Below are positions 5,360 to 34,258 of a stretch of DNA of 64,000 nt, piece after piece. A program made the position numbers and the translations under genes. The notes beneath the pieces were generated by a model. It saw only the letters and a list, made by a program, of their open reading frames with translations, did no database searches and was not told the DNA's origin. The DNA comes from a virus (Duplodnaviria > Caudoviricetes): the IMG/VR virus record IMGVR_UViG_3300030055_000003; one strand, given 5' to 3'. How positions within the stretch are numbered: the stretch's first letter is position 1; the number at the start of each line of letters is the position of its first letter.

Positions 5360-5605
5360 TTTCCTATCTCCTTTTTATAATTTATTAATATTCCATTCAA
5401 ATCCATATTTTATTGCCTTTTTATTTATTAAAAGTCTCTTTATATAATTTATCTATTTTCTTTTCTAAAGAATTACTAGCTTCTGAGCCATCAGATTCAC
5501 CACACATCATATCACTTAACCATAATATTTCTGAATCAGATAATTCTAATACTTTAATTTTATTTTTTAATTCATTATACATATTAATATCCTCCCATCT
5601 TTTAA

Positions 5606-5908
5606 TTAAACATTTAAAACCGTTGGAAATCCTAAATATTGTACACTGTCCACATCTTCTTGTTCCTCATATGTTTTAATAGTTTCTTCAATGCTATTAT
5701 GATTTATTTCTTCAATGTCATCATCGCCATCAGTATAATTAATTAGTATTAATGGTTTGCTTTTATTATCTATAATTTCTGGCAAACTACCATAATGTTT
5801 TCCTTGACCAATAAAATTACTATTTATGAAACTCTTAATTACCTCATAATTTTCACCTCTTATATCAAAAAATTGTTCTCCATCTAAATCTAAAAACATT
5901 CTCTTCAT
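5606..5908 (-). CDS. Hypothetical protein
   Basis: ORF with RBS. Confidence 0.7.
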   Translation of the reverse strand: MKRMFLDLDGEQFFDIRGENYEVIKSFINSNFIGQGKHYGSLPEIIDNKSKPLILINYTDGDDDIEEINHNSIEETIKTYEEQEDVDSVQYLGFPTVLNV

Positions 5909-6019
5909 CTTAATCTCTCCTTTATATTTTCTATTAATTTATTCTATTAAAATCAACCATTTACGGTAATTTCCTAGAACTGATTTTTATTTTTAATTCT
6001 AGGAAGTTATCTGTTTTTA

Positions 6020-14429: not shown

Positions 14430-15866
14430 TTATTTAGTATTTTCTATAGCATAATTAATTCTATTTAACAAATTGCTTATGGTAACATGCTCCATAAACT
14501 GATACTTTTCATTCCTAACCTCATTATTAACGTAGTAGTCTTTTGCATTCTCTATTAAAGTATTTATATAATGTCTTGAAGTTCCAGTACAACATATAAC
14601 TACATCATAACTCACTAATTTTGAAATAATCTTTAGTGGACTTTCTGAATAGGTATCAAATCCACTAACTTTTAAATTATATTTCTTTAACTCACTTATA
14701 TATAATTTTTGATTAAATGAATTAATAATCAATACTTTTTGATTATTAAAATTTTCATAATTGATGTATTCTTTTTTTATATTCCCTGTTCTAATCACTT
14801 TAAGCTTATTATCTTTTCTTAAATTCATTTCATAAAGATGGCTAATCAACTCTTCTTTACTTTCAATATAAGGATATATATTTGTAATTACATATTCATT
14901 ATTTTCATCATTAAATTCAGCTACGCAAAAGACTTCTTCTAAATCTTCTATATAATACTTACTAGCATTTACATTATCAAAAGTATTCCCATTATAGTCT
15001 ATATAAATGTATTTATCATCGTTATTCTTTAACATACCCATAGATTCTTTTATTTTAACTAGAACATGTCTAGGATTATCTGATTTTATACTTAGTTTAT
15101 TTTCTTTTGTAGTATCGACTACAATTTCTTTTACTTTTTCAGTAGGTTCATATATTTCTAATTTTTTTCTTAAATTTTGATTTTCCACACTTAAGCTATA
15201 CTTATCATTTTCCAATGATTCTATTTGTTGCTTATACAAATTACTATATCCATCAAGTTTATTGATTCTTAAACTGTCTACATCCTTAATTAACGTTGAA
15301 ATAATTTCAGTTTTACCACCTAATTGAGTCCTTAAGTCTCTGTTTGAAACTGATAATAATTCTAATTTTTCACTAAGTTTTCTAAGCATGTTTTGTTGCC
15401 CTATCTGTCGCTTGTATTTATAATATTCTTTTGATAAATCTTTATGAACTTTTTGTAATATATAATATTGTAATTTAATATCATCATATTTTTCTTTTAA
15501 GTTCACAAGGTTAGTCTTGTTTATATTTATATCATCATTTAACTTCTTATTAGTATTAGCATATGATAAAATTTTCTTTTCTAATTTTTTAGATTTTGTA
15601 ATAGCTAATGTTTTTTCAACTTTTAATACTTTCATTTGATTTTTAAGTATCTTTAGTTGTTCAGCATGTTTATTAATCTGAATTTTGTCATTGTTGCTAT
15701 CCTCCTTATTATCAACTTCAATAATCTCATTATTTTTAGTCAATTCCTTAGATTTTTCCTCAAATTGTTTCTTTAATAACTCTCTCTTTTCTTCCATGAG
15801 TTTTTTATTTTTATCTACTATATCTGGTGGTTTTCCAAAGTTTTTTATTATTATTCCATAGCCCAT
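14430..15866 (-). CDS. Coiled-coil protein with C-terminal DUF2325-like domain
   Basis: Long heptad region; C-terminal KVLII...YDVVICCTGTSRH Rossmann-like segment. Confidence 0.6.
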   Translation of the reverse strand: MGYGIIIKNFGKPPDIVDKNKKLMEEKRELLKKQFEEKSKELTKNNEIIEVDNKEDSNNDKIQINKHAEQLKILKNQMKVLKVEKTLAITKSKKLEKKILSYANTNKKLNDDININKTNLVNLKEKYDDIKLQYYILQKVHKDLSKEYYKYKRQIGQQNMLRKLSEKLELLSVSNRDLRTQLGGKTEIISTLIKDVDSLRINKLDGYSNLYKQQIESLENDKYSLSVENQNLRKKLEIYEPTEKVKEIVVDTTKENKLSIKSDNPRHVLVKIKESMGMLKNNDDKYIYIDYNGNTFDNVNASKYYIEDLEEVFCVAEFNDENNEYVITNIYPYIESKEELISHLYEMNLRKDNKLKVIRTGNIKKEYINYENFNNQKVLIINSFNQKLYISELKKYNLKVSGFDTYSESPLKIISKLVSYDVVICCTGTSRHYINTLIENAKDYYVNNEVRNEKYQFMEHVTISNLLNRINYAIENTK

Positions 15867-15968: not shown

Positions 15969-17261
15969 TTAACCCTCCTTACGTAATTCTGTTCCATCAA
16001 TGATTAAATTAACTTTTCTACAATCTAACTTATCTTCATTTCTATATTTTATATCATAATAATCATTTATATCCAATACAAAATTAGACAAATGCCATAT
16101 TCTAGTTACTCCATCTTTGTTAATTCTAGTAATTATAAATCCACTTATATTGATTAACCATTGATATTTTGACACTTTTGAAATATCTTCTTTATCTATA
16201 ATCACTTTTACTTCGCTATTATTTCTTTTAATGGATATATATGCAATATCACCACATTCAATAATTAAATTTTTATGAACCTTTGTATGTTTTGTTTCTT
16301 CATTATTAAGCAAATTTAGTTCTTTTTTAACCTTTTTCCTTCTGTCGTATTCAATCTCAACTGCACCTAACCAATTAAAAAATATATGCATTATTTTATA
16401 TATATTAGCTTTACATATTATTTCTTTTGGATACCATATTTTAAATTTTTCTTCTATGGTTACAAAATCTATATCATATTTCCCATTATATAATTCATAT
16501 AAATAATCCATTCTTGCAGAACTCTCTAAATCATATAGTGCTATTCTCTTTATATTTATAACCTTACACGCCTTGTAAATTCTAGAATTAAGTGTATCAT
16601 AATTAACAATTTCATGGTTTTTGCCTTTTATTATATGAAAAATGTTTTTGTTAAAATCAATATATTTCTTTTTATGGATTTCCTTTGCTAAATCCATCCA
16701 TTTTAAGAAATCAGAATCCACACTAATATGCAGAATTATTTCTTCTTCTTCATTAAATATAATCACTTCTTTATTTTTAAAATCTATATCTTTCCACTTT
16801 ATTTGCCTAGCATATATCATCTTCTGACCAGTAATACCGTATCTAGCTAATATTAAAGGTAAAACATTGTCTATGCCATTTGCTTCAAAAATTTTTCTAC
16901 ACAAATTAAAAAAATTATACTTAGAAATATACCAAGAATTATCTACTTTGTTTTTTCGTTTTAATTTAAATTCTTTGAGTTCTTTATGATAACTTTTAGA
17001 ATACCATTTTAAATAAAATTTAATAAAAGAATTAAATGTATATAATATACTGTCACTTAAGTCTGTGACTTTTTCATTACATTTTTTAATTTCATCTTCT
17101 CCAAAATCATATAAGTCTTTATTAGATTCATTTTCAATGTCAGCTATATAATTCATATACAAGTTCCAATTTGTAATTTCAGTAGATTTAGAGTAATTAG
17201 AACCTTTAAAAAATAAATATTTATTTACTTGAAATTGACTAGGTATAGGCATAAATTCCAA
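15969..17261 (-). CDS. MrpR-like degenerate tyrosine-recombinase-fold protein fused to a degenerate HNH domain
   Basis: Aligns by eye with 29547..30656 (LxxYG...IKWxDxD); lacks HxxR/LGH; C-terminus VIIDKED...QW...HLSNFVL...DIKYRNEDKLDCRKVNL. Confidence 0.6.
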   Translation of the reverse strand: MEFMPIPSQFQVNKYLFFKGSNYSKSTEITNWNLYMNYIADIENESNKDLYDFGEDEIKKCNEKVTDLSDSILYTFNSFIKFYLKWYSKSYHKELKEFKLKRKNKVDNSWYISKYNFFNLCRKIFEANGIDNVLPLILARYGITGQKMIYARQIKWKDIDFKNKEVIIFNEEEEIILHISVDSDFLKWMDLAKEIHKKKYIDFNKNIFHIIKGKNHEIVNYDTLNSRIYKACKVINIKRIALYDLESSARMDYLYELYNGKYDIDFVTIEEKFKIWYPKEIICKANIYKIMHIFFNWLGAVEIEYDRRKKVKKELNLLNNEETKHTKVHKNLIIECGDIAYISIKRNNSEVKVIIDKEDISKVSKYQWLINISGFIITRINKDGVTRIWHLSNFVLDINDYYDIKYRNEDKLDCRKVNLIIDGTELRKEG

Positions 17262-25768: not shown

Positions 25769-27364
25769 TTAAATATGTATTGATCTATTATCATATTGAA
25801 AATGCAATCCCTTGTATTCCTGTCCTGTATTGCAAGCATGAGTTATTCCTTTTCTATAAAGTTTTATTCCAAATTCTTTTTCACTATTTGTATAACATTC
25901 ATTTATTGATGTAAATTCTTTATTATACTCTATATTTATAATTGATTTTTTACTAGAATCTCTTATAAATTTCTTATATTCTATTAATCCCTCATCTTCC
26001 GCTTGTTTTAAATAATCTCCTATTACTGTATTATCTAAATTAAGTAGTCTACCTATTTCAGAAGCATTATGTATTCCATTATTCCATAATTCAATTGCAT
26101 TAATTACATTTTTATCATGAATTTCTACTGCTGATATATAATTGCATAGATTATATTCTCTTGCCCTTTTTAAGTACCTCTTAACAGTTTTAAAATCTAT
26201 ATCCATTATTTTAGCAATCTCCATATGTCCTACTCCTTGATTATAATATTCACAAGCTTTAACTAAATACGAACTTAAAGATTCTTGTTCACATAAATTC
26301 CAATTAATTTTAGATATATCAAATAGTTTATTAATTTTTTCATTGTTTAATATATTATTTTTTATGTATTCAAATTTACTATACCTACAGTCAATTACTA
26401 TGTAATTTTCTTCTTTTATATTATTACTTAAAGCTAGTTTTTCTTTTAATTTATCATTTTCAGACTCTTCGTAATAACTTCTTCTAGAAAAACTACATTC
26501 TTCATAATGCTGAAGTCCATTTGTTTCTATCACAATGTTATTATGTTCTATATAAAAATCATATTCTTTGTTACCACATAAAGACTCTATTTCTGATAAT
26601 ACATTTTTAGACCAATCAAAATGTTTATGTCTTTTTATTTGTAAATTTAATTGTTTAAGTAGATTATATGTAAATTTTTCACCATAACTAAATCCGTCAG
26701 AACAAACTTGACAACAAATATCTTTTTCTCGATATAATGTAGATATTGCCATATTATCTCTTGGAACTTTACAAATCGGACAATGTAATAATCCTTTGTC
26801 TTGGCTTCCAAATGTTCTTGATTCTGCATCTTTAGTATTTTTAAAAAACTTAACCATCCACGGGTCTGTATCAGCGATTGTATTAATTCCTAAAACTGGT
26901 ACTTTATTAGAGCAACATCCACAACCTTGTTTCTTTTTCAAATTTCCCTCATTTATTCTTCCATTTTCCCAACCACATTCTAAGCATTCAAATATATATT
27001 CTTTTGTATTATCATTTTTATTTCTTGATTGTTCTTTAATCTTTATTTTTCCAGTAGATACTTCGATAATATCTCCTACATTGTAATAATGTTTACGTGT
27101 ATTTATTCCTAATAATTCACCTAATTGGCAATTCTGAAAATTACCTGTCCATATGTAAAATATATCTTTATTTAAATATTTTAAACCTAATATAGTTAGA
27201 CTATTTTCTCTTTTTACTTCTACAATTTCAACCCAACCTTCTTTATCATAATAAATAAATTTAACTTTATGACTTTTACATTCAAACCAATTTATTAAAC
27301 TATTGTTATTCTTTTTTCTAGGTAAATTTTCTAAAAATACTTTTCTAATTTTATTTTCTTTCAT
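25769..27364 (-). CDS. Putative homing endonuclease (Zn-ribbons, PD-(D/E)xK domain, HTH/NUMOD1-like tail)
   Basis: CLEC, CGCC, CPIC, CQVC; SYGE...KEYDFYIE...IETNGLQHY; C-terminal FTSINEC...ITHAC. Confidence 0.75.
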   Translation of the reverse strand: MKENKIRKVFLENLPRKKNNNSLINWFECKSHKVKFIYYDKEGWVEIVEVKRENSLTILGLKYLNKDIFYIWTGNFQNCQLGELLGINTRKHYYNVGDIIEVSTGKIKIKEQSRNKNDNTKEYIFECLECGWENGRINEGNLKKKQGCGCCSNKVPVLGINTIADTDPWMVKFFKNTKDAESRTFGSQDKGLLHCPICKVPRDNMAISTLYREKDICCQVCSDGFSYGEKFTYNLLKQLNLQIKRHKHFDWSKNVLSEIESLCGNKEYDFYIEHNNIVIETNGLQHYEECSFSRRSYYEESENDKLKEKLALSNNIKEENYIVIDCRYSKFEYIKNNILNNEKINKLFDISKINWNLCEQESLSSYLVKACEYYNQGVGHMEIAKIMDIDFKTVKRYLKRAREYNLCNYISAVEIHDKNVINAIELWNNGIHNASEIGRLLNLDNTVIGDYLKQAEDEGLIEYKKFIRDSSKKSIINIEYNKEFTSINECYTNSEKEFGIKLYRKGITHACNTGQEYKGLHFQYDNRSIHI

Positions 27365-27406
27365 TAACTATTCTCCTCTATTAATTTATTTTTAATATTA
27401 CAAAGA

Positions 27407-27436
27407 ACACAAACCAAGATTACTCCTAGTTTGTGT
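27407..27436 (-). terminator. Intrinsic terminator after pro-peptide gene
   Basis: ACACAAACTAGGA-GTAA-TCTTGGTTTGTGT stem with GNRA loop, followed by TCTTT. Confidence 0.8.
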
Positions 27437-27469
27437 CTTGTTGTTATGTATTTGTTTTAGTTACAATTC

Positions 27470-27574
27470 CTAGCCTCTACCAGAGCTAATTGCGTAACAA
27501 CTTATTTGACTAGCCATTGTAGCGATTGCTATTACTGCCATTAAAACAAATACTTTTACTTTTGATTTATTCAT
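27470..27574 (-). CDS. 34-aa secreted signalling pro-peptide (AimP/Phr-like); predicted mature ISSGRG
   Basis: Not in ORF track; AGGAGGTGAA RBS 6 nt before ATG; MNKSKVKVFVLMAVIAIATMASQISCYAISSGRG = basic N-region, hydrophobic core, C-Y-A cleavage site. Confidence 0.8.
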   Translation of the reverse strand: MNKSKVKVFVLMAVIAIATMASQISCYAISSGRG

Positions 27575-27668: not shown

Positions 27669-28325
27669 TTAGCATGTACCATATTTTACTTTTATTTGTT
27701 GTTGCAATAACAATATTTTCTCACACAATATAATATTTATATTGTTTACCTCCTTTATTAATTCTTGAAAAGCCTCATCATATTGTGATGAATTGTTATG
27801 TATTAGCATGTCCTCTGCAACCACAAGGACATTACTAAAATTTTTTTCTAATAAACTTAAATTTAGTTTAGCAATAAGCTTTTCTAAATAACCTTCAACA
27901 TTATATGGATCACATCTTTTATAAGTTTCATAACAAAATTTATAAATTTTTATTAATTCTTCATTTGATAATTCTTTTTTATAGCAATGAACATAATTAT
28001 TTAAAGCTTTTGCATAGTCTTGTTTATGTCTTTGTGTGGTTAAATAATTAGGATAGTTCTCTAATTTTTCTTTAAGTTCTTTTGAATATAATCTAGCCGA
28101 GGTTATACTACCATTTAAATTTTGTTCAATACATTTTATTTCAGCATTTGTTAAATCACTTAATAATAATCTTATTTCATCTATATCTTTTAATGAATCT
28201 ATTTCTTGAAACCTCATTTTTTTTAGCATATTCCTAGCTTTTTCCACTCCATTTATCTCATTATCCCATTTATGATATACATCACTTTCTATCCTATCTG
28301 TTACGCTTCTTCTCTTATTTATCAT
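27669..28325 (-). CDS. All-helical TPR-like protein, candidate peptide receptor (RRNPP-like, no HTH)
   Basis: Amphipathic helical repeats with Asn motifs (YAKALNNY, AKLNLSLL); directly upstream of the pro-peptide gene. Confidence 0.55.
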   Translation of the reverse strand: MINKRRSVTDRIESDVYHKWDNEINGVEKARNMLKKMRFQEIDSLKDIDEIRLLLSDLTNAEIKCIEQNLNGSITSARLYSKELKEKLENYPNYLTTQRHKQDYAKALNNYVHCYKKELSNEELIKIYKFCYETYKRCDPYNVEGYLEKLIAKLNLSLLEKNFSNVLVVAEDMLIHNNSSQYDEAFQELIKEVNNINIILCEKILLLQQQIKVKYGTC

Positions 28326-28350: not shown

Positions 28351-29154
28351 TTATATTGCTATCACTTCTTTTTCTTTCTCACATTGCATATAAAATTCCC
28401 TGTAATTTAGATTATTATCTTCACAATATATTTGTAATTCATATAATAAATCACTTCTTTCTTTTCGCAGAAGGTCGATTAAACTTTCTGTTTTGGTTTC
28501 TATAATTAATTCTTCACAATTCTTAATAGCATTTAATCGTTTGTTTATTTTATTTTGCATATATCTAGGCAGTTTTTCAAGTGGAGTCTTTTCTTGTAAT
28601 TCATTCATTGAAATATCTTTTGCTATTTTAATTTTCTTTTTTGTTATATCATCAAGTACTCCAACTCTGCTTTTAATTCTTCTTTTATCTAAAGTTCTTA
28701 CTTGCTCTAGCATAACTATTGAATCTTTAGGTAATCCAAATTGACCTGCTGAAATCTCGACATGCGTTGGAAGTTTACTTTTAGTTTGTTGGCTTGTAAC
28801 AAATGCTACTATAACAGTAGGAGAATACTTATTTCCAATTTCGTTCTGTATACAAATAGCGAATCTGTCATTATTTTGTTCGCTCCATCGCCCCCCATCT
28901 AAATTGACATATAATACCTCACCCCATTCAATATCCTTTAAATCTATATTATTATTTATTTTATTATCAGCAATATTTCTATTGCTATGTACATTGTTAA
29001 CTTCTATTTTTACTTGTTTAATTTGTTTATTAATATCTAGGTCTTTAACTTCTATCTTTGCTTCAATTAACTTATTATCATTCTTTAATTCCTCTTTATC
29101 CATTTCCAACTTAATCATCATTAGTTGTTCTCTTAACTCTAACATTACAACCAC
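28351..29154 (-). CDS. mazF: PemK/MazF (NdoA-like) endoribonuclease with N- and C-terminal extensions
   Basis: GEVLYVNL..SEQ..DRFAICIQNEIGNKYSPTVIVAFVTS...KLPTHVEI...DSIVMLEQVRTLDKRRI. Confidence 0.9.
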   Translation of the reverse strand: MVVMLELREQLMMIKLEMDKEELKNDNKLIEAKIEVKDLDINKQIKQVKIEVNNVHSNRNIADNKINNNIDLKDIEWGEVLYVNLDGGRWSEQNNDRFAICIQNEIGNKYSPTVIVAFVTSQQTKSKLPTHVEISAGQFGLPKDSIVMLEQVRTLDKRRIKSRVGVLDDITKKKIKIAKDISMNELQEKTPLEKLPRYMQNKINKRLNAIKNCEELIIETKTESLIDLLRKERSDLLYELQIYCEDNNLNYREFYMQCEKEKEVIAI

Positions 29155-29226
29155 CTTCCTCTAATTATTAAATCCCTTTAAAATTACTTTTTTATTATAT
29201 TAATTTGTTCCTGTTTCTATACTCTT

Positions 29227-29434
29227 ATGTTACATCTTATTTCCAAACTTGTCAATACTTTTTTTAAAATATTTATTTATTTCTTTTAATTTATTGACTT
29301 GTTCCTTATGAATATTATCCTACCACCATGTGGTAACTCTGTCAATACTTTTTTAAATTTATTTTTGTTCTTTTATTAATTTGTTTGTATCTCTTCTATG
29401 ACCTAATAATATACCCTACGGAATATAATGTCAA
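29227..29434 (-). promoter_or_regulatory. Three tandem sigmaA promoters upstream of the mazF-receptor-peptide operon
   Basis: TTGACA at 29250-55, 29340-45 and 29429-34, each with a -10-like hexamer at 17 nt. Confidence 0.7.
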
Positions 29435-29524
29435 CACTTTTATCAAAATAATTTGTAGTTCTGTTAATTTATTTTAAACACTCCTTAAACATAGCAAATA
29501 AGCCAAATAAATAAACAAAAAGAA

Positions 29525-29547
29525 AAGGTTGGATGCTTGCTCCAACC
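29525..29547 (-). terminator. Intrinsic terminator after MrpR-like gene
   Basis: AGGTTGGA..TCCAACCT followed by T-rich tract. Confidence 0.75.
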
Positions 29548-30656
29548 TAGCTCTCTATCTTTTCTGAATCAATACTTACTTCTAATTCAGATGATAATTC
29601 AATTTCTATCTCTTTATTTTCAACTTTAGAAATATTTTTATTAGTTCTCTTTTTTGTTTTTATATCTAATCCTGATATTAATTGAAAATCTCTTCGGACT
29701 CTTGAGTTTTTATTTACTGTAAACGTATTGTCATATATTTCATTTACATCATCTATATCAATATTTGTAACCATATCATTTTGTTTATATTTTTCAAATA
29801 ATAAATCAAATCTTCTATTCATATTTAAATTAGGTACACTTATTCTATTAATTCCATTACTTTTTGAAAGATTTCCTAGTTTATTATATACATCTTCGGC
29901 ACTCATATGTTGCCAATCAACTCTTTCAGTTGTTTTAATAATAAATCCTATATCTAAATAATTAATGTCTTCCATTTCTGTTTCTTTTTTATTAACTCTT
30001 TTCAAACTTGCTTTTGATTGTTTTCTTGGTTTAGTAAAACAATTTTTAGCTGAATCTATAAATCTTATAAATGAATTATCAATCGGCAATTCCAACAAAC
30101 CTTTTTCTTCTGAATAAACATTTAAAATTTTCTTTTCTCTATCTACATCTTCCCATTTTATAGTTCCCACATTATCTATAGGAACTCCATATCTTAACAA
30201 TGTCAACATTGCCCTGTCTACATCTGTACAATCTAATCCATATATAAATTCATTAAATTCTTGAAGTGTCTTGTACTGTTGTTTCTTAGCTTCATCACTA
30301 ACATCAAATAAACCAGTTGTATCAATTGAATCACATGGATTCCCTACATAGTTATAACCTTTTTTATATGCCCAACCTATATAATTTGATATTGTAGTAA
30401 ATAACATACTTTTTGTTGTCATTGAAGTTGTTGCAGTAGTTTTTATTGCTTGAATTATCTCTTGTTTAGTCCAATTATACAATTCTTTCTCTTTGTTTAA
30501 TTCTAAGAAATTGACTCTAGTATTTAACAAAATCCAGTAAGTTCTTTTTGTAGTATCTGAATATCTATCTTCGACTTCTTCTAACCAATCAGCTTTTCTT
30601 TTTAGATATTCATTTAAACCATCATATTTTACATCTTCATCTAAGAATTCATACAT
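29547..30656 (-). CDS. MrpR/SroF-like phage master repressor (catalytically degenerate tyrosine-recombinase fold)
   Basis: Integrase SAM-like N-domain (TTKRTY...KELYNWT...ISNYIGWA...NP); LLRYG...IKWEDVD; no HxxR/LGH/Tyr set. Confidence 0.7.
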   Translation of the reverse strand: MYEFLDEDVKYDGLNEYLKRKADWLEEVEDRYSDTTKRTYWILLNTRVNFLELNKEKELYNWTKQEIIQAIKTTATTSMTTKSMLFTTISNYIGWAYKKGYNYVGNPCDSIDTTGLFDVSDEAKKQQYKTLQEFNEFIYGLDCTDVDRAMLTLLRYGVPIDNVGTIKWEDVDREKKILNVYSEEKGLLELPIDNSFIRFIDSAKNCFTKPRKQSKASLKRVNKKETEMEDINYLDIGFIIKTTERVDWQHMSAEDVYNKLGNLSKSNGINRISVPNLNMNRRFDLLFEKYKQNDMVTNIDIDDVNEIYDNTFTVNKNSRVRRDFQLISGLDIKTKKRTNKNISKVENKEIEIELSSELEVSIDSEKIES

Positions 30657-30657
30657 T

Positions 30658-32043
30658 CTACATTACCTCCTTAGCTATCTTTTCAAAATATTCATATATG
30701 TGTTTTACATTACAATCTTTTATATCTAATTTAAATTTTTTATTTAAATCTTCATTAATTTTTATTAGCTTATCAGCCACATCTCCAGCTAATAATCTTG
30801 AATTTTCATTGTTTTTTAATACGTTCGCTATTGCAAGATAACCAACAAACATATTAGGTTTTAATAAAAAGTTATGTTCTTTCATTACTTCTATATCGTC
30901 ACCAAAGTATTGAGACGATAAATATTCAATTAACATATCTATAATATTAGATATTTTTCTTGCTTCTCTTTCAGATGTTACGTCATTATCTATTTTTTCA
31001 ATATCCATAAACTCTACACTATCATTAAGAACACTTAGATAAGTTAATGATTTTTTTACTTTACATTCGCTAATAATATTTGCAACCTTATTTTTTAATG
31101 TTTTTGAATTAGTAGTTACATATTGTATAAATCTATTTTCTGGTGTATCTTTTAAAGTTTTTGCATAGGTTTTATCTGTTGAATTTTGTTCAAAAGTATC
31201 GGAAGTATATTGTTTTGCTTCACTTGGACTCATTAAAAAGAAAAATACACCTAATCCTTCATCTTCAACTTCTGTGTCTTCAAAATAAGCGTCCGCTAAA
31301 GCAGTAGATCTATGATTTCCATCATTTATTATCATTGGAGTATAATTAATTGAATTACTATCAAAATTTGGAGTAACTTCTAGTCTTCCAAACTTCTTCT
31401 TATACTCAGGAATAAATTTAACTTGTGGTTCTTTATTAGGCATATCTAAAACAGTAAAAGTTATAGCTGTTGGTTTTATATTGTGTTTTTTAAATCTTTG
31501 AATTAAAGAATTAATTCCATCTTTATTTACATTGATTTTTTCAATCTCTTCACCATTTGGAAGTTTTACAATTTTTCTAGCTCTTTGAATCCCTTCAAAA
31601 TTTCCCAACTTATTATTTTCTTTTATTTGCGCAAGTTGTTTAGCTTTGATGAAAAACCAATAAGCATTATTTCCAACCTTTTGACAATCTTCAAATACAA
31701 TTGTTTTTAATTCTTCTTGCTTTTCAGCTTCTTGATATACCTCATAATTCGTTAATACTGTACCTGTAAAATAATCTGTTGGATTTATATTAACTCCTAA
31801 ATTCTTTTCATTAGCTTTTGCAAAATTAAAAATTGATTTTGATAAAGCTATTAATACATTTTCATTTTTTATTTCATGTACTGTTAGCCCTTTATTGAAT
31901 AGTAATGCTGGAATATCTAAATTTAATCCTTTAGCACTAAATTCTTTATTGATATCTTGTTGTAATCTCATATTCGCTATTTCATTTTGAATAACCAATG
32001 TTAAATTGTCCTTTAAAATGTTTATATTAATCTTATCACTCAT
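30658..32043 (-). CDS. DGQHR/DndB-like (ParB/Srx-type) domain protein, SroE-like
   Basis: IINDGNHRSTAL motif; F..EQN motif; coupled to MrpR-like gene. Confidence 0.65.
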   Translation of the reverse strand: MSDKININILKDNLTLVIQNEIANMRLQQDINKEFSAKGLNLDIPALLFNKGLTVHEIKNENVLIALSKSIFNFAKANEKNLGVNINPTDYFTGTVLTNYEVYQEAEKQEELKTIVFEDCQKVGNNAYWFFIKAKQLAQIKENNKLGNFEGIQRARKIVKLPNGEEIEKINVNKDGINSLIQRFKKHNIKPTAITFTVLDMPNKEPQVKFIPEYKKKFGRLEVTPNFDSNSINYTPMIINDGNHRSTALADAYFEDTEVEDEGLGVFFFLMSPSEAKQYTSDTFEQNSTDKTYAKTLKDTPENRFIQYVTTNSKTLKNKVANIISECKVKKSLTYLSVLNDSVEFMDIEKIDNDVTSEREARKISNIIDMLIEYLSSQYFGDDIEVMKEHNFLLKPNMFVGYLAIANVLKNNENSRLLAGDVADKLIKINEDLNKKFKLDIKDCNVKHIYEYFEKIAKEVM

Positions 32044-33289: not shown

Positions 33290-34258
33290 TTAGTCAGTAA
33301 TTTCAACTTCATATTTATATAAAGCATCGTATAGTTTTTGTGGTATTTTGTTTTTATAATAATCTGCGACATCTTTTATATGTTTTTCTTTATTCTTTTT
33401 ATAAATACAAAAAGCTTCCTCTGGAGTATCAAAACATCCTAAATGAAATCTAGTTTCTAATATTGCGTCACTATACCTTGCTCTAAATTTCCCACTTTCT
33501 GTAATTCCAACACCTATTGGATATTCTCCTCGTACTTTTTTACAACTTATAATTAAAGCATTTATATTATTAGGCACAATAATACAATTTTCAGGACTGT
33601 AAACTTTATTCCCTTTATGTAGTATATCTTTATCCACTTCCATTCTTTGTCCTTCTATTTTATAATAATTTTCATCCCACCACTTAGCAAATACTTGGAA
33701 ATTATGCCACTCTTTATCTACACTACAACCAAAATATGTAGGTTGTTTTATTTGTTGTTTTTCATCATAACATCTCTTTATCATAGCAAGCCACGTATAA
33801 TATTGTGGTATATTTTTATTATTAATTGTTGGGACATGTTCACCCTCACCTAAATATCCAACACCACAAATGAGTCTATCGTAAGGTGATATTAGATTTC
33901 CTTTTTTAAATTCTGTGTATAATTTGTTTTTAAAAAAAGAACCATTATCAAATTTAACATCTATATCCTTACAATTTCTATACCCAACAATAGTCATTTT
34001 ACTTCCGTATTTATTATAATTTATTTCTCCTACTTTATCTTTAATTTGATTTTTATTTTTTCTAGCTATTCTACATTTTGGACATATTTGTCCTTTTAAT
34101 AATCTATTTGGATTGGAAGTATTCCATTCATGTCCACATATTTTATCCTTAACTAATATTTTTGTTGTATCATTTATATATTCTCCTAATACTTCAATAT
34201 TAGGATTTTTAACTTTCATCTCTTCCTTAAATTGTTCAGTCGTTTTAATTTTTCCCAT
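33290..34258 (-). CDS. HNH/AP2-type homing endonuclease
   Basis: YTW.AMIKRCY...WHNFQVFAKW...DKDIL..GNKVYSPENC; C-terminal AP2-like HLGCFDTPEEAF. Confidence 0.8.
   Translation of the reverse strand: MGKIKTTEQFKEEMKVKNPNIEVLGEYINDTTKILVKDKICGHEWNTSNPNRLLKGQICPKCRIARKNKNQIKDKVGEINYNKYGSKMTIVGYRNCKDIDVKFDNGSFFKNKLYTEFKKGNLISPYDRLICGVGYLGEGEHVPTINNKNIPQYYTWLAMIKRCYDEKQQIKQPTYFGCSVDKEWHNFQVFAKWWDENYYKIEGQRMEVDKDILHKGNKVYSPENCIIVPNNINALIISCKKVRGEYPIGVGITESGKFRARYSDAILETRFHLGCFDTPEEAFCIYKKNKEKHIKDVADYYKNKIPQKLYDALYKYEVEITD

Follow-up and report, generated by a model that had tools for sequence, protein, structure and literature searches.

What keeps a phage-borne MazF toxin in check where no MazE antitoxin accompanies it, and what would a phage use such an enzyme for? 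The question is raised by a 64,000-nt stretch of DNA (the window), which corresponds to the minus strand of positions 7600-71599 in the 140,944-base IMG/VR virus record IMGVR_UViG_3300030055_000003. The window encodes MazF-ext, a MazF-like ribonuclease (RNase) whose core is extended at both ends, and the gene appears to be a composite whose C-terminal part travels with a putative downstream peptide receptor. We assign a probability of about one half to the reading that MazF-ext is a peptide-gated phage RNase driving a lysis-lysogeny switch.

On the minus strand, the frame at 28351-29154 is open for 267 aa from a GTG at 29154, which adds three in-frame residues to a start at the ATG at 29145. 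The ATG is the likelier start; it is preceded by GGAAGGTGG, and the 264-aa form is the protein recorded by gene callers (P0002, with an identical copy on 41 contigs). Judged by profile, fold and catalytic residues, MazF-ext is a member of the MazF/PemK family. The Pfam profile PemK_toxin (PF02452) scores 87 bits over aa 78-176 (E 1.3e-24; cut-off 23.1), and the family PHROG 1936, annotated as "MazF-like growth inhibitor" and filed by PHROGs under morons and host takeover, is covered over profile positions 7-136 of 188. Residues 76-183 align to full-length Bacillus subtilis MazF/EndoA (4mdx, 1ne8) at E ~1e-25 with ~50% identity, and the MazF proteins of B. cereus, B. anthracis and Staphylococcus aureus give the same full-length alignment, again at E ~1e-25 and ~50% identity. 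In an AlphaFold2 (AF2) model built on 24 relatives, the core superimposes on solved MazF structures (4mdx, 1ne8, 4mzp) with TMt 0.85-0.88 and a root-mean-square deviation of ~2 A (Foldseek), identifying it as the SH3-like barrel of the MazF/Kid fold.

The SEQ and LEQxRTxDKxR segments are retained in the core, as are the equivalents of Arg25 and Thr48 in pairwise alignments with solved MazF; the 24 aligned relatives all have the Arg and show no variation in the Thr-Ser pair. This residue numbering of B. subtilis MazF is presumably that of Simanshu et al. 2013. An earlier inspection of the letters and open reading frames (ORFs) alone, here termed the sequence-only reading, had described a Firmicute NdoA-like core with both catalytic residues kept, and these comparisons bear it out. 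The unusual WSEQNN and RF substitutions that it singled out are likewise real: WSEQNNDRF is aligned to GSEQGGVRP, and VAFVTSQ to VAAITAQ. These changes are confined to the sub-clade of the window, most relatives carrying GSEQxGIRY. The MazF enzymes of B. subtilis, Listeria and S. aureus cut the strict site U^ACAUA (bioRxiv 10.64898/2026.08.06.743204), and by analogy with the B. subtilis type MazF-ext probably has the same specificity.

The absence of MazE, also claimed from the sequence, withstood a wider search. No ribbon-helix-helix (RHH) gene (PF01402) occurs in the 141-kb record, and a hidden Markov model (HMM) of the MazE toxin-binding motif detected neither a MazE-like motif in any phage ORF nor an AimX- or YosL-like motif among them; its scores on the MazF-ext family were no better than those on other phage ORFs. 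When either extension was compared by hhalign with 21 MazE proteins that Clostridia encode upstream of cellular mazF, the probability stayed below 1%. MazE mimicry by the extensions is not supported, as an 8-column resemblance (NKIN / EMxxIN) lies at the background level of phage ORFs. The 392-nt gap upstream of MazF-ext contains no credible sense-strand ORF, the gene upstream of MazF-ext in relatives is an MrpR-like gene and not a MazE gene, and MazE is missing upstream of every homologue that carries the C-extension. Because it lacks MazE, the locus is not a MazEF pair.

Gene neighbourhood was examined at 15 loci (given L numbers where they must be told apart). At 11 of them, MazF-ext is followed by a protein of 205-229 aa resembling tetratricopeptide repeat (TPR) proteins and then by an ORF of 29-40 aa with a signal-peptide-like start; the gap between the first two genes is -1 to 32 nt, and in L086 the receptor gene is broken by masked bases. 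The label "orphan" given to the toxin is consequently misleading, since MazF-ext heads a conserved three-gene operon, and the opposite arrangement, in which homologues routinely have a standard MazE and no receptor-peptide pair, is not what these loci hold. The three genes form a predicted co-transcribed unit. The usual order starts with a divergent helix-turn-helix (HTH) gene and the DGQHR/DndB-like and MrpR-like genes; after a terminator come between one and three TTGACA promoters and then MazF-ext. This order is found at most of the 15 loci, with L082 lacking upstream sequence and L014 deviating. In L007 and L014, a remote helical partner of ~190-200 aa lies downstream, with no recognisable peptide ORF. 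The MazF and partner genes of L007 and L089 have overlapping stop and start codons.

The 218-aa protein encoded in the window was modelled by AF2 at a mean predicted local distance difference test (pLDDT) of 92.6 as ten helices in one TPR-like solenoid. Its VIA Z values were 13.5 for a TPR protein, 12.2 for RapI, 11.5 for PlcR, 10.5 for NprR and 10.0 for the phage phi105 Rap, a range (10-13.5) that is common for helical repeats and not specific. A Foldseek search of the PDB returned nothing at E 0.001 or better, the matches being at E 0.02 or worse; no HTH was found in Pfam or NCBIfam, and PADLOC matched neither MazF-ext nor the receptor. The model is TPR-like and compatible with an RRNPP-type receptor. 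The pre-peptide is presumably secreted and processed, as its signal-peptide-like start suggests. Its C-termini over the 11 loci are ISSGRG, GSIGRG, AGSGRG, GPGVRG, GGPRG, GSPRG, TSPRG, GSTRG, GGGWG and GNGWG; the GWG ends accompany the receptors of L002 and L005, and an identical ISSGRG end accompanies the 70%-identical receptors of the window and L082.

Both extensions proved close to the ~70 N-terminal and ~85 helical C-terminal residues first estimated. The N-extension spans ~71-75 aa and was modelled as disordered (pLDDT 31-55), helix being predicted only at aa 3-17; in the family alignment, it keeps an MLDLxEQLxxLK start and an xHSN motif. The C-extension of ~84 aa consists of a linker and two helices (aa 194-216 and 220-243, pLDDT ~90 in AF2), and the linker KTPLEKLP hardly varies, even among members with divergent hairpins. 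Searched for exhaustively with HMMER, the C-extension by itself recovered 13 clusters only, all attached to MazF except one 90-aa sequence (P0123), which starts inside the end of a core and is read as a fragment. The same query found nothing in species-representative genomes, where a whole-family profile found cellular MazF cores and one contig of a metagenome-assembled genome with the C-extension. MazF-ext is covered to 95-99% by about 30 proteins of 240-286 aa, and the contigs that encode some of them measure 97-284 kb. Among the GenBank phage records in the collection, none reaches 80% coverage of it, matches being to the core alone, and PDB sequences hold no meaningful match to either extension (the best, interleukin-18 at E 0.25, is noise).

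The evidence that the hairpin and the RNase core have separate histories comes from pairwise identities over ten loci, with MazF-ext divided into N-extension, core and C-extension. Identity of the C-extension tracks that of the receptor (Spearman rho 0.85, Mantel p 2e-4), whereas identity of the core does not (rho 0.00, p 0.44), and the N-extension lies between (rho 0.37, p 0.06); the two halves of the receptor each track the C-extension (rho 0.75 and 0.78). Two pairs illustrate the pattern in opposite directions. Between the window and L083, the core is 87% identical, and the C-extension and receptor are 38% and 36% identical; between the window and L082, the core is only 36% identical, the C-extension and receptor are both 70% identical, and the mature peptide end is the same. 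In sliding comparisons of the DNA, the core reaches 75-92% and the C-extension plus receptor 40-55% against L083, compared with 38-58% and 65-95% against L082. In both pairs, the shift falls exactly at the junction of core and C-extension. By this measure the MazF-ext gene is made of three modules, and the hairpin evidently belongs with the receptor and peptide, not with the RNase.

A quick tree of 174 cores shows five family members split from all EndoA-type cores (99% SH-aLRT), both core types sitting in one frame of N- and C-extensions. The core of the window's protein is 50-60% identical to cellular Clostridia MazF. In the tree the EndoA-type cores of the family form clades of their own, not nested among cellular cores; repeated capture of cores from hosts has no support from it. 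The location of the breakpoints within a gene at a domain boundary, not between genes, favours functional coupling without proving it. We accordingly favour the C-extension as a receptor-docking surface, a role suggested by its co-inheritance with the receptor. Docking had been proposed in the sequence-only reading; what stands is that the C-extension, and not the core, co-varies with the TPR-like protein, which amounts to co-inheritance and not to binding. A prediction of the complex between MazF-ext aa 66-264 and the 218-aa protein returned 0.00, 0.47 and 0.00, which gives no verdict and is not used as evidence.

The second line of evidence concerns the distribution of the MazF site, with expectations taken from pentamers on the sense strand and from codon shuffling inside ORFs. 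UACAUA ranks 2612 of 2614 hexamers, the third most over-represented (199 against 150 expected, z 7.3), and within phage ORFs it occurs 151 times against 61 after codon shuffling (z 11). On the sense strand, depletion is instead seen for its reverse complement, UAUGUA, and for two variants, UACAUU and UACAUG; the UACAUA sites are spread genome-wide, in all three frames and with no flanking motif. Ten related loci show the same excess (98 against 69 expected, z 5.9). In contrast to this enrichment, the DGQHR/MrpR-like gene pair upstream of MazF-ext (29547..32043, minus strand) contains no UACAUA in 13 of 13 loci, over 32.9 kb in which 37-46 would be expected; the encoded proteins are ~25-32% identical between loci, and only 4.2% of 2.5-kb segments of the phage lack the site. 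Motif avoidance as self-immunity was ruled out, UACAU and UACAUA being enriched and not depleted.

Within the operon itself the site is held in place. At 9 of 11 receptor-bearing loci, the aligned xHSN/xHNN residues of the N-extension are written with the codons xTA CAT Arx, which contain UACAUA. These are the only conserved residues of the variable N-extension; the flanking V/L/I and S/N vary and the hexamer stays constant. Given codon usage, the chance of this is ~1.5e-5 with the loci taken as independent. Each receptor gene has a single UACAUA, and in all ten of the ten loci it falls at the same [IL]-H-[NK] position of the alignment; the peptide ORFs contain none. This pattern indicates that these phages are subject to cleavage specific for UACAUA, which leaves the repressor-like operon alone and strikes the message of the MazF-ext operon. 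Conservation of the hexamer in its codons further suggests that the N-extension has at least an RNA-level role.

Put together, these observations would fit the following scheme. The receptor would stand in for MazE and hold or gate the RNase through contact with the hairpin, and the mature peptide (xxxxRG) would switch this hold in the way that Phr peptides act on Rap proteins: once imported, it would alter the receptor's grip on MazF-ext. By analogy with phi3T, in which MazF promotes lysogeny, build-up of the peptide would free MazF-ext. The freed RNase would then cut U^ACAUA, so that lytic messages drop, repressor messages survive and the infection turns lysogenic, and through the sites in the N-extension and the receptor gene the active enzyme would also cut its own operon mRNA, a self-limiting brake. 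Both the direction in which the peptide acts and whether the receptor inhibits in its apo form or activates when bound to peptide are guesses, the former drawn from arbitrium. The most explicit form of the proposal, in which an HTH-free minimal TPR receptor gated by a secreted hexapeptide grips a co-evolving hairpin, UACAUA density addresses the genome, lytic and most other genes being rich in the site, and RNase activity leads to lysogeny, is possible, though doubtful as a whole.

Several points weigh against the peptide-gated switch. Contact between receptor and MazF-ext is suggested by co-inheritance, and the co-variation could reflect linkage of adjacent DNA together with a recombination hot spot; the structural similarity of the 218-aa protein to Rap-type receptors is shared, as noted, with helical repeats in general. 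The specificity of the core is projected from ~50% identity, and its WSEQNN loop differs from GSEQGG. Host MazF as the acting enzyme would give an equal UACAUA pattern: phi3T and SPbeta, both host-MazF cases, encode no MazF. L082 and L088, which have a different PemK-type core, retain most of the site pattern. For the upstream pair, tblastn of the MrpR-like protein found no named phage, and its Pfam match lies at threshold level. L004 and L084 (the latter of the P0026-P0028 clade) have both extensions and a terminator directly behind the gene, with no receptor or peptide gene nearby, which implies that the extensions also serve without an adjacent receptor. Finally, a trans-acting antitoxin could be encoded in the missing part of the record, which is 57% complete (CheckV).

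Those two receptor-less loci lend weight to a different view, that of a single-chain toxin. Here one extension, either the C-terminal hairpin with its linker or the disordered N-extension, would keep the RNase blocked, within its own chain or across the dimer, much as the C-terminal domain does in fused toxin-antitoxins of the CapRel type; a trigger would relieve the block, and the receptor, where present, would be an activator or a separate add-on. We consider such self-inhibition unlikely. It would account for a toxin tolerated without any antitoxin gene, as in L004 and L084, where all three parts of the protein stand before a terminator with neither partner nor MazE; the near-invariance of KTPLEKLP despite divergence of the hairpin and the attachment of the C-extension to MazF in all but one fragment point the same way. 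An autoinhibitory role had also been raised in the sequence-only reading; the present evidence tips neither for nor against it, the relatives with extensions and no receptor gene standing on its side. Weighing against it, the extensions contain no MazE-like sequence by either hhalign or the motif HMM, and the co-variation of C-extension and receptor would demand a further explanation. On another view, which we also consider unlikely, the 218-aa protein would be a novel proteic antitoxin in an ordinary toxin-antitoxin (TA), abortive-infection or prophage-addiction cassette of reversed order, the small ORF being unrelated or a separate signal without a part in lysis-lysogeny. The dyad-bearing promoters resemble those of autoregulated TA operons, and the two genes are tightly coupled, to the point of stop/start overlap in L007 and L089. 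Against this view, the DNA-binding domain that autoregulation would call for is absent from both proteins. The PHROGs category of morons and host takeover would suit a cassette of this kind; the pre-peptide ORF, kept in 11 loci and tracking receptor clades, would not, and the enrichment of UACAUA together with its avoidance in the repressor-like operon directs attention to the phage's own transcripts. The PADLOC search, as stated, was also negative.

Mimicry of the host MazEF system is distinctly unlikely, both in the form in which MazF-ext sequesters host MazE to the benefit of host MazF, which is thereby released, like phi3T_93/SroB, and in the variants, no more probable, in which host MazE neutralises MazF-ext or MazF-ext forms inactive heterodimers with host MazF. 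The resemblance of the core to cellular Clostridia MazF and the use by phi3T of mimicry of MazE and MazF partners make the idea natural; exchange between PemK-type cores could follow differing host TA systems, and the variants without a receptor would be accounted for if host MazE served as antitoxin. A pure decoy, however, could do without the two catalytic residues and the motifs for RNA binding, all of which are kept family-wide, and the EndoA-type cores of the family stand in clades apart from cellular ones. The sequence-only reading had considered that the protein might poison host MazF dimers; this found no support, as the catalytic and RNA-binding motifs are kept and the UACAUA pattern argues for real cleavage. 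Very improbable, in turn, is a host shut-off nuclease that degrades mRNA early in lytic growth with the phage's own transcripts protected. Three strong tandem promoters and the "host takeover" category would agree with such a role, which is disfavoured because a phage so rich in UACAUA would expose its own transcripts above all to cleavage, unless the enzyme has another specificity.

How the peptide-gated reading of MazF-ext relates to known systems can be stated in terms of parts. With B. subtilis MazF (EndoA/NdoA/YdcE) and its orthologues (4mdx, 1ne8, 4mzm, 7bxy, 4hke), the whole 110-residue fold is common; MazF-ext differs in its 71-aa N-extension, its 84-aa C-terminal hairpin and WSEQNN in place of GSEQGG, and in being phage-encoded, without an upstream RHH-type MazE and followed by TPR-like and pre-peptide genes. 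PHROG 1936 already groups phage MazF proteins with some extra C-terminal length, in which the architecture of hairpin, receptor and peptide is undescribed. The CapRel SJ46 type of toxin carries its C-terminal regulatory domain in one chain and has no separate classical antitoxin; its toxin is RelA/SpoT-like and not MazF, and most MazF-ext members have a co-varying partner gene.

In phi3T, arbitrium acts via host MazF, whose activity promotes lysogeny (PMC10769878); MazE mimics AimX and YosL are supplied there under an HTH-bearing AimR antiterminator (PMC10769878), and UACAU is enriched in phi3T and SPbeta genes (Guler et al.; bioRxiv 10.1101/2023.04.27.537455; PMC10769878). The MazF-ext locus resembles this arbitrium-MazEF axis (AimR-AimP-AimX, YosL, SroA-F; Guler et al. 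2024) in the RG-type end of its peptide, its putative Sro-like neighbour and phage transcripts rich in the MazF site, and a pro-lysogeny output of MazF is suggested here by analogy. The axis of phi3T uses the host's MazF, whereas here MazF is phage-borne, the receptor lacks an HTH and the proposed control is from protein to protein. As in arbitrium, a pre-peptide ORF with a signal sequence directly follows the receptor gene. AimR, however, comprises an N-terminal HTH and TPRs in ~380 aa, compared with 218 aa and no HTH in the window, and aimX lies downstream of aimP, where the window has a terminator and then a homing-endonuclease-like gene. Because its receptor has no HTH and there is no aimX, the locus is not a canonical arbitrium system. 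Rap-Phr systems (RapI, RapF, RapH, phage phi105 Rap) have an HTH-free TPR receptor that binds its target protein directly and is switched by a short imported peptide, a part that the 218-aa protein would play here; its likeness to the TPR domain of RapI (Z 12.2) lies in the range usual for helical repeats. They differ in that the 218-aa protein has no N-terminal three-helix-bundle effector domain and no sequence similarity to them, and in that the proposed target is an RNase with a dedicated docking hairpin. The module would work most like Rap-Phr aimed at an RNase and placed where SPbeta-type phages keep arbitrium.

The MazF-ext locus is a combination of known kinds of parts, and its regulation is what we infer from them. 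To our knowledge, phi3T is the one case in which the connection from peptide communication of a phage to a toxin has been worked out. What the present locus adds is an RNase that is itself phage-borne and fused to a module travelling with a peptide receptor, together with a site code: UACAUA is enriched overall, missing from the repressor-like operon and kept in the message of the MazF-ext operon itself. If the reading is true, it would represent a compact, portable, peptide-controlled RNase switch, in which arbitrium logic is carried out by protein-protein and RNA-cleavage steps with no transcription-factor receptor, and a natural case of swappable toxin cores in a constant regulatory frame. 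The transcripts that MazF must cut or spare for lysogeny would then become testable from sequence. RRNPP detectors that need long or HTH-bearing receptors would miss such systems.

Table 1 Features of the MazF-ext locus, in the order of transcription; positions are those of the window
Feature	Position	Strand	Details
DGQHR/DndB-like gene	30658-32043	-	DndB 27.1 bits
MrpR-like recombinase-fold gene	29547-30656	-	MrpR_N_CB 27.0 bits, equal to the Pfam cut-off
Intrinsic terminator of upstream SroE/F-like operon	29526..29548	-	
Three tandem promoter-like units	29227..29434	-	-35 boxes at 29434, 29345 and 29255
MazF-ext gene	28351..29145	-	264 aa from ATG at 29145; ORF with ribosome-binding site
N-extension	28933..29145	-	aa 1-71; amphipathic helix aa 3-17, then variable low-complexity linker
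UACAUA in N-extension codons	28986..28991	-	Val-His-Ser = GTA CAT AGC
MazF/EndoA core	28606..28932	-	aa 72-180; ~50% identity to solved MazF, fold match
C-extension	28354..28605	-	aa 181-264; KTPLEKLP linker and two-helix hairpin
TPR-like putative receptor, 218 aa, without HTH	27669..28325	-	25 nt downstream of MazF-ext
UACAUA in receptor gene	27797..27802	-	Ile-His-Asn = ATA CAT AAC
Pre-peptide ORF, 34 aa, ending ISSGRG	27470..27574	-	signal-peptide-like N-terminus, strong ribosome-binding site
Terminator-like hairpin ending the operon	27401..27440	-	GC-containing inverted repeat, then T run

The gap upstream of MazF-ext (29155-29546) had been described as holding only promoters. Three promoter-like sites of the form TTGACA-N17-TAnnAT are indeed present, spaced 89-90 bp apart and without a credible sense ORF among them, and the gap contains one terminator in addition. 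Each promoter unit is of its own type, with a different dyad between -35 and -10, and the three types recur in related loci, where their DNA is 80-90% identical and the flanking proteins are 40-50% identical. The dyad of the middle promoter is TACCAC-ATG-GTGGTA (promoter region 29227-29472). A genome-wide repressor box was ruled out, the promoter dyads being unique in the 141-kb record. A type III (ToxIN-like) antitoxin RNA was also rejected: what the ~90-bp units have in common is mainly the promoter boxes (column identity 73%), each has its own -35 and -10, no terminator lies between the units and the gene, and the gap has no Rfam match.

By threshold-level profile matches, the gene pair further upstream resembles the SPbeta repressor genes SroE/SroF. 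The first gene also matches TIGR03187 (DGQHR) at 1.2e-7 and 31.8 bits, under the cut-off of 58.85, and homologues of the second match both MrpR_N_CB and MrpR_C_cat. A second recombinase-fold gene of the window, at 15969-17261, is closer than 29547-30656 to the MrpR-like genes of L002, L003 and L005. It lies, with a 478-aa gene at 14430-15866, in the longest UACAUA-free stretch of the phage (14289-17739; 3450 nt), which may be a second MazF-resistant lysogeny unit. A third UACAUA of the MazF-ext operon is found at 27445-27450, between the pre-peptide stop codon and the operon terminator. The receptor-less MazF-ext genes of L004 (5977-6774) and L084 (4001-4792) are also without UACAUA. Another motif, GCAGC, occurs 0 times on the sense strand of the 141-kb record against 14.2 expected from tetramers, which looks like restriction-site avoidance.

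At L007, the partner gene overlaps the MazF stop codon by 7 nt, the gap upstream of MazF (5582-5970) holds a small ORF with a hydrophobic stretch, and the MazF protein has the C-extension without the N-extension. Elsewhere, in metagenomic proteins, EndoA-like cores are joined to other domains (P0037, P0079, P0073, P0093, P0095, P0111 and P0115), namely RHH_1 (PF01402), PF04326, Bro-N/KilA-type domains (PF02498, PF10552) and PF10543, indicating that fusion to an extra module is not unique to the MazF-ext family.

The carrier is presumably a large phage of low-GC anaerobes; its GC content is 24%, nearly all genes lie on one strand, and Clostridia are the source of the closest cellular relatives of the MazF core. 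Megablast against GenBank phages and plasmids gave no match to the locus, and DNA identical to it is present in peat metagenomes (24 DNA runs and no RNA runs listed). The module is flanked by homing-endonuclease/HNH-like genes at 25769-27364 (PHROG 4538/9084) and 33290-34258 (PHROG 953). A homologue of the former lies upstream of the module in L004 and downstream in L085, and this shift of side points to mobile insertions near the module.

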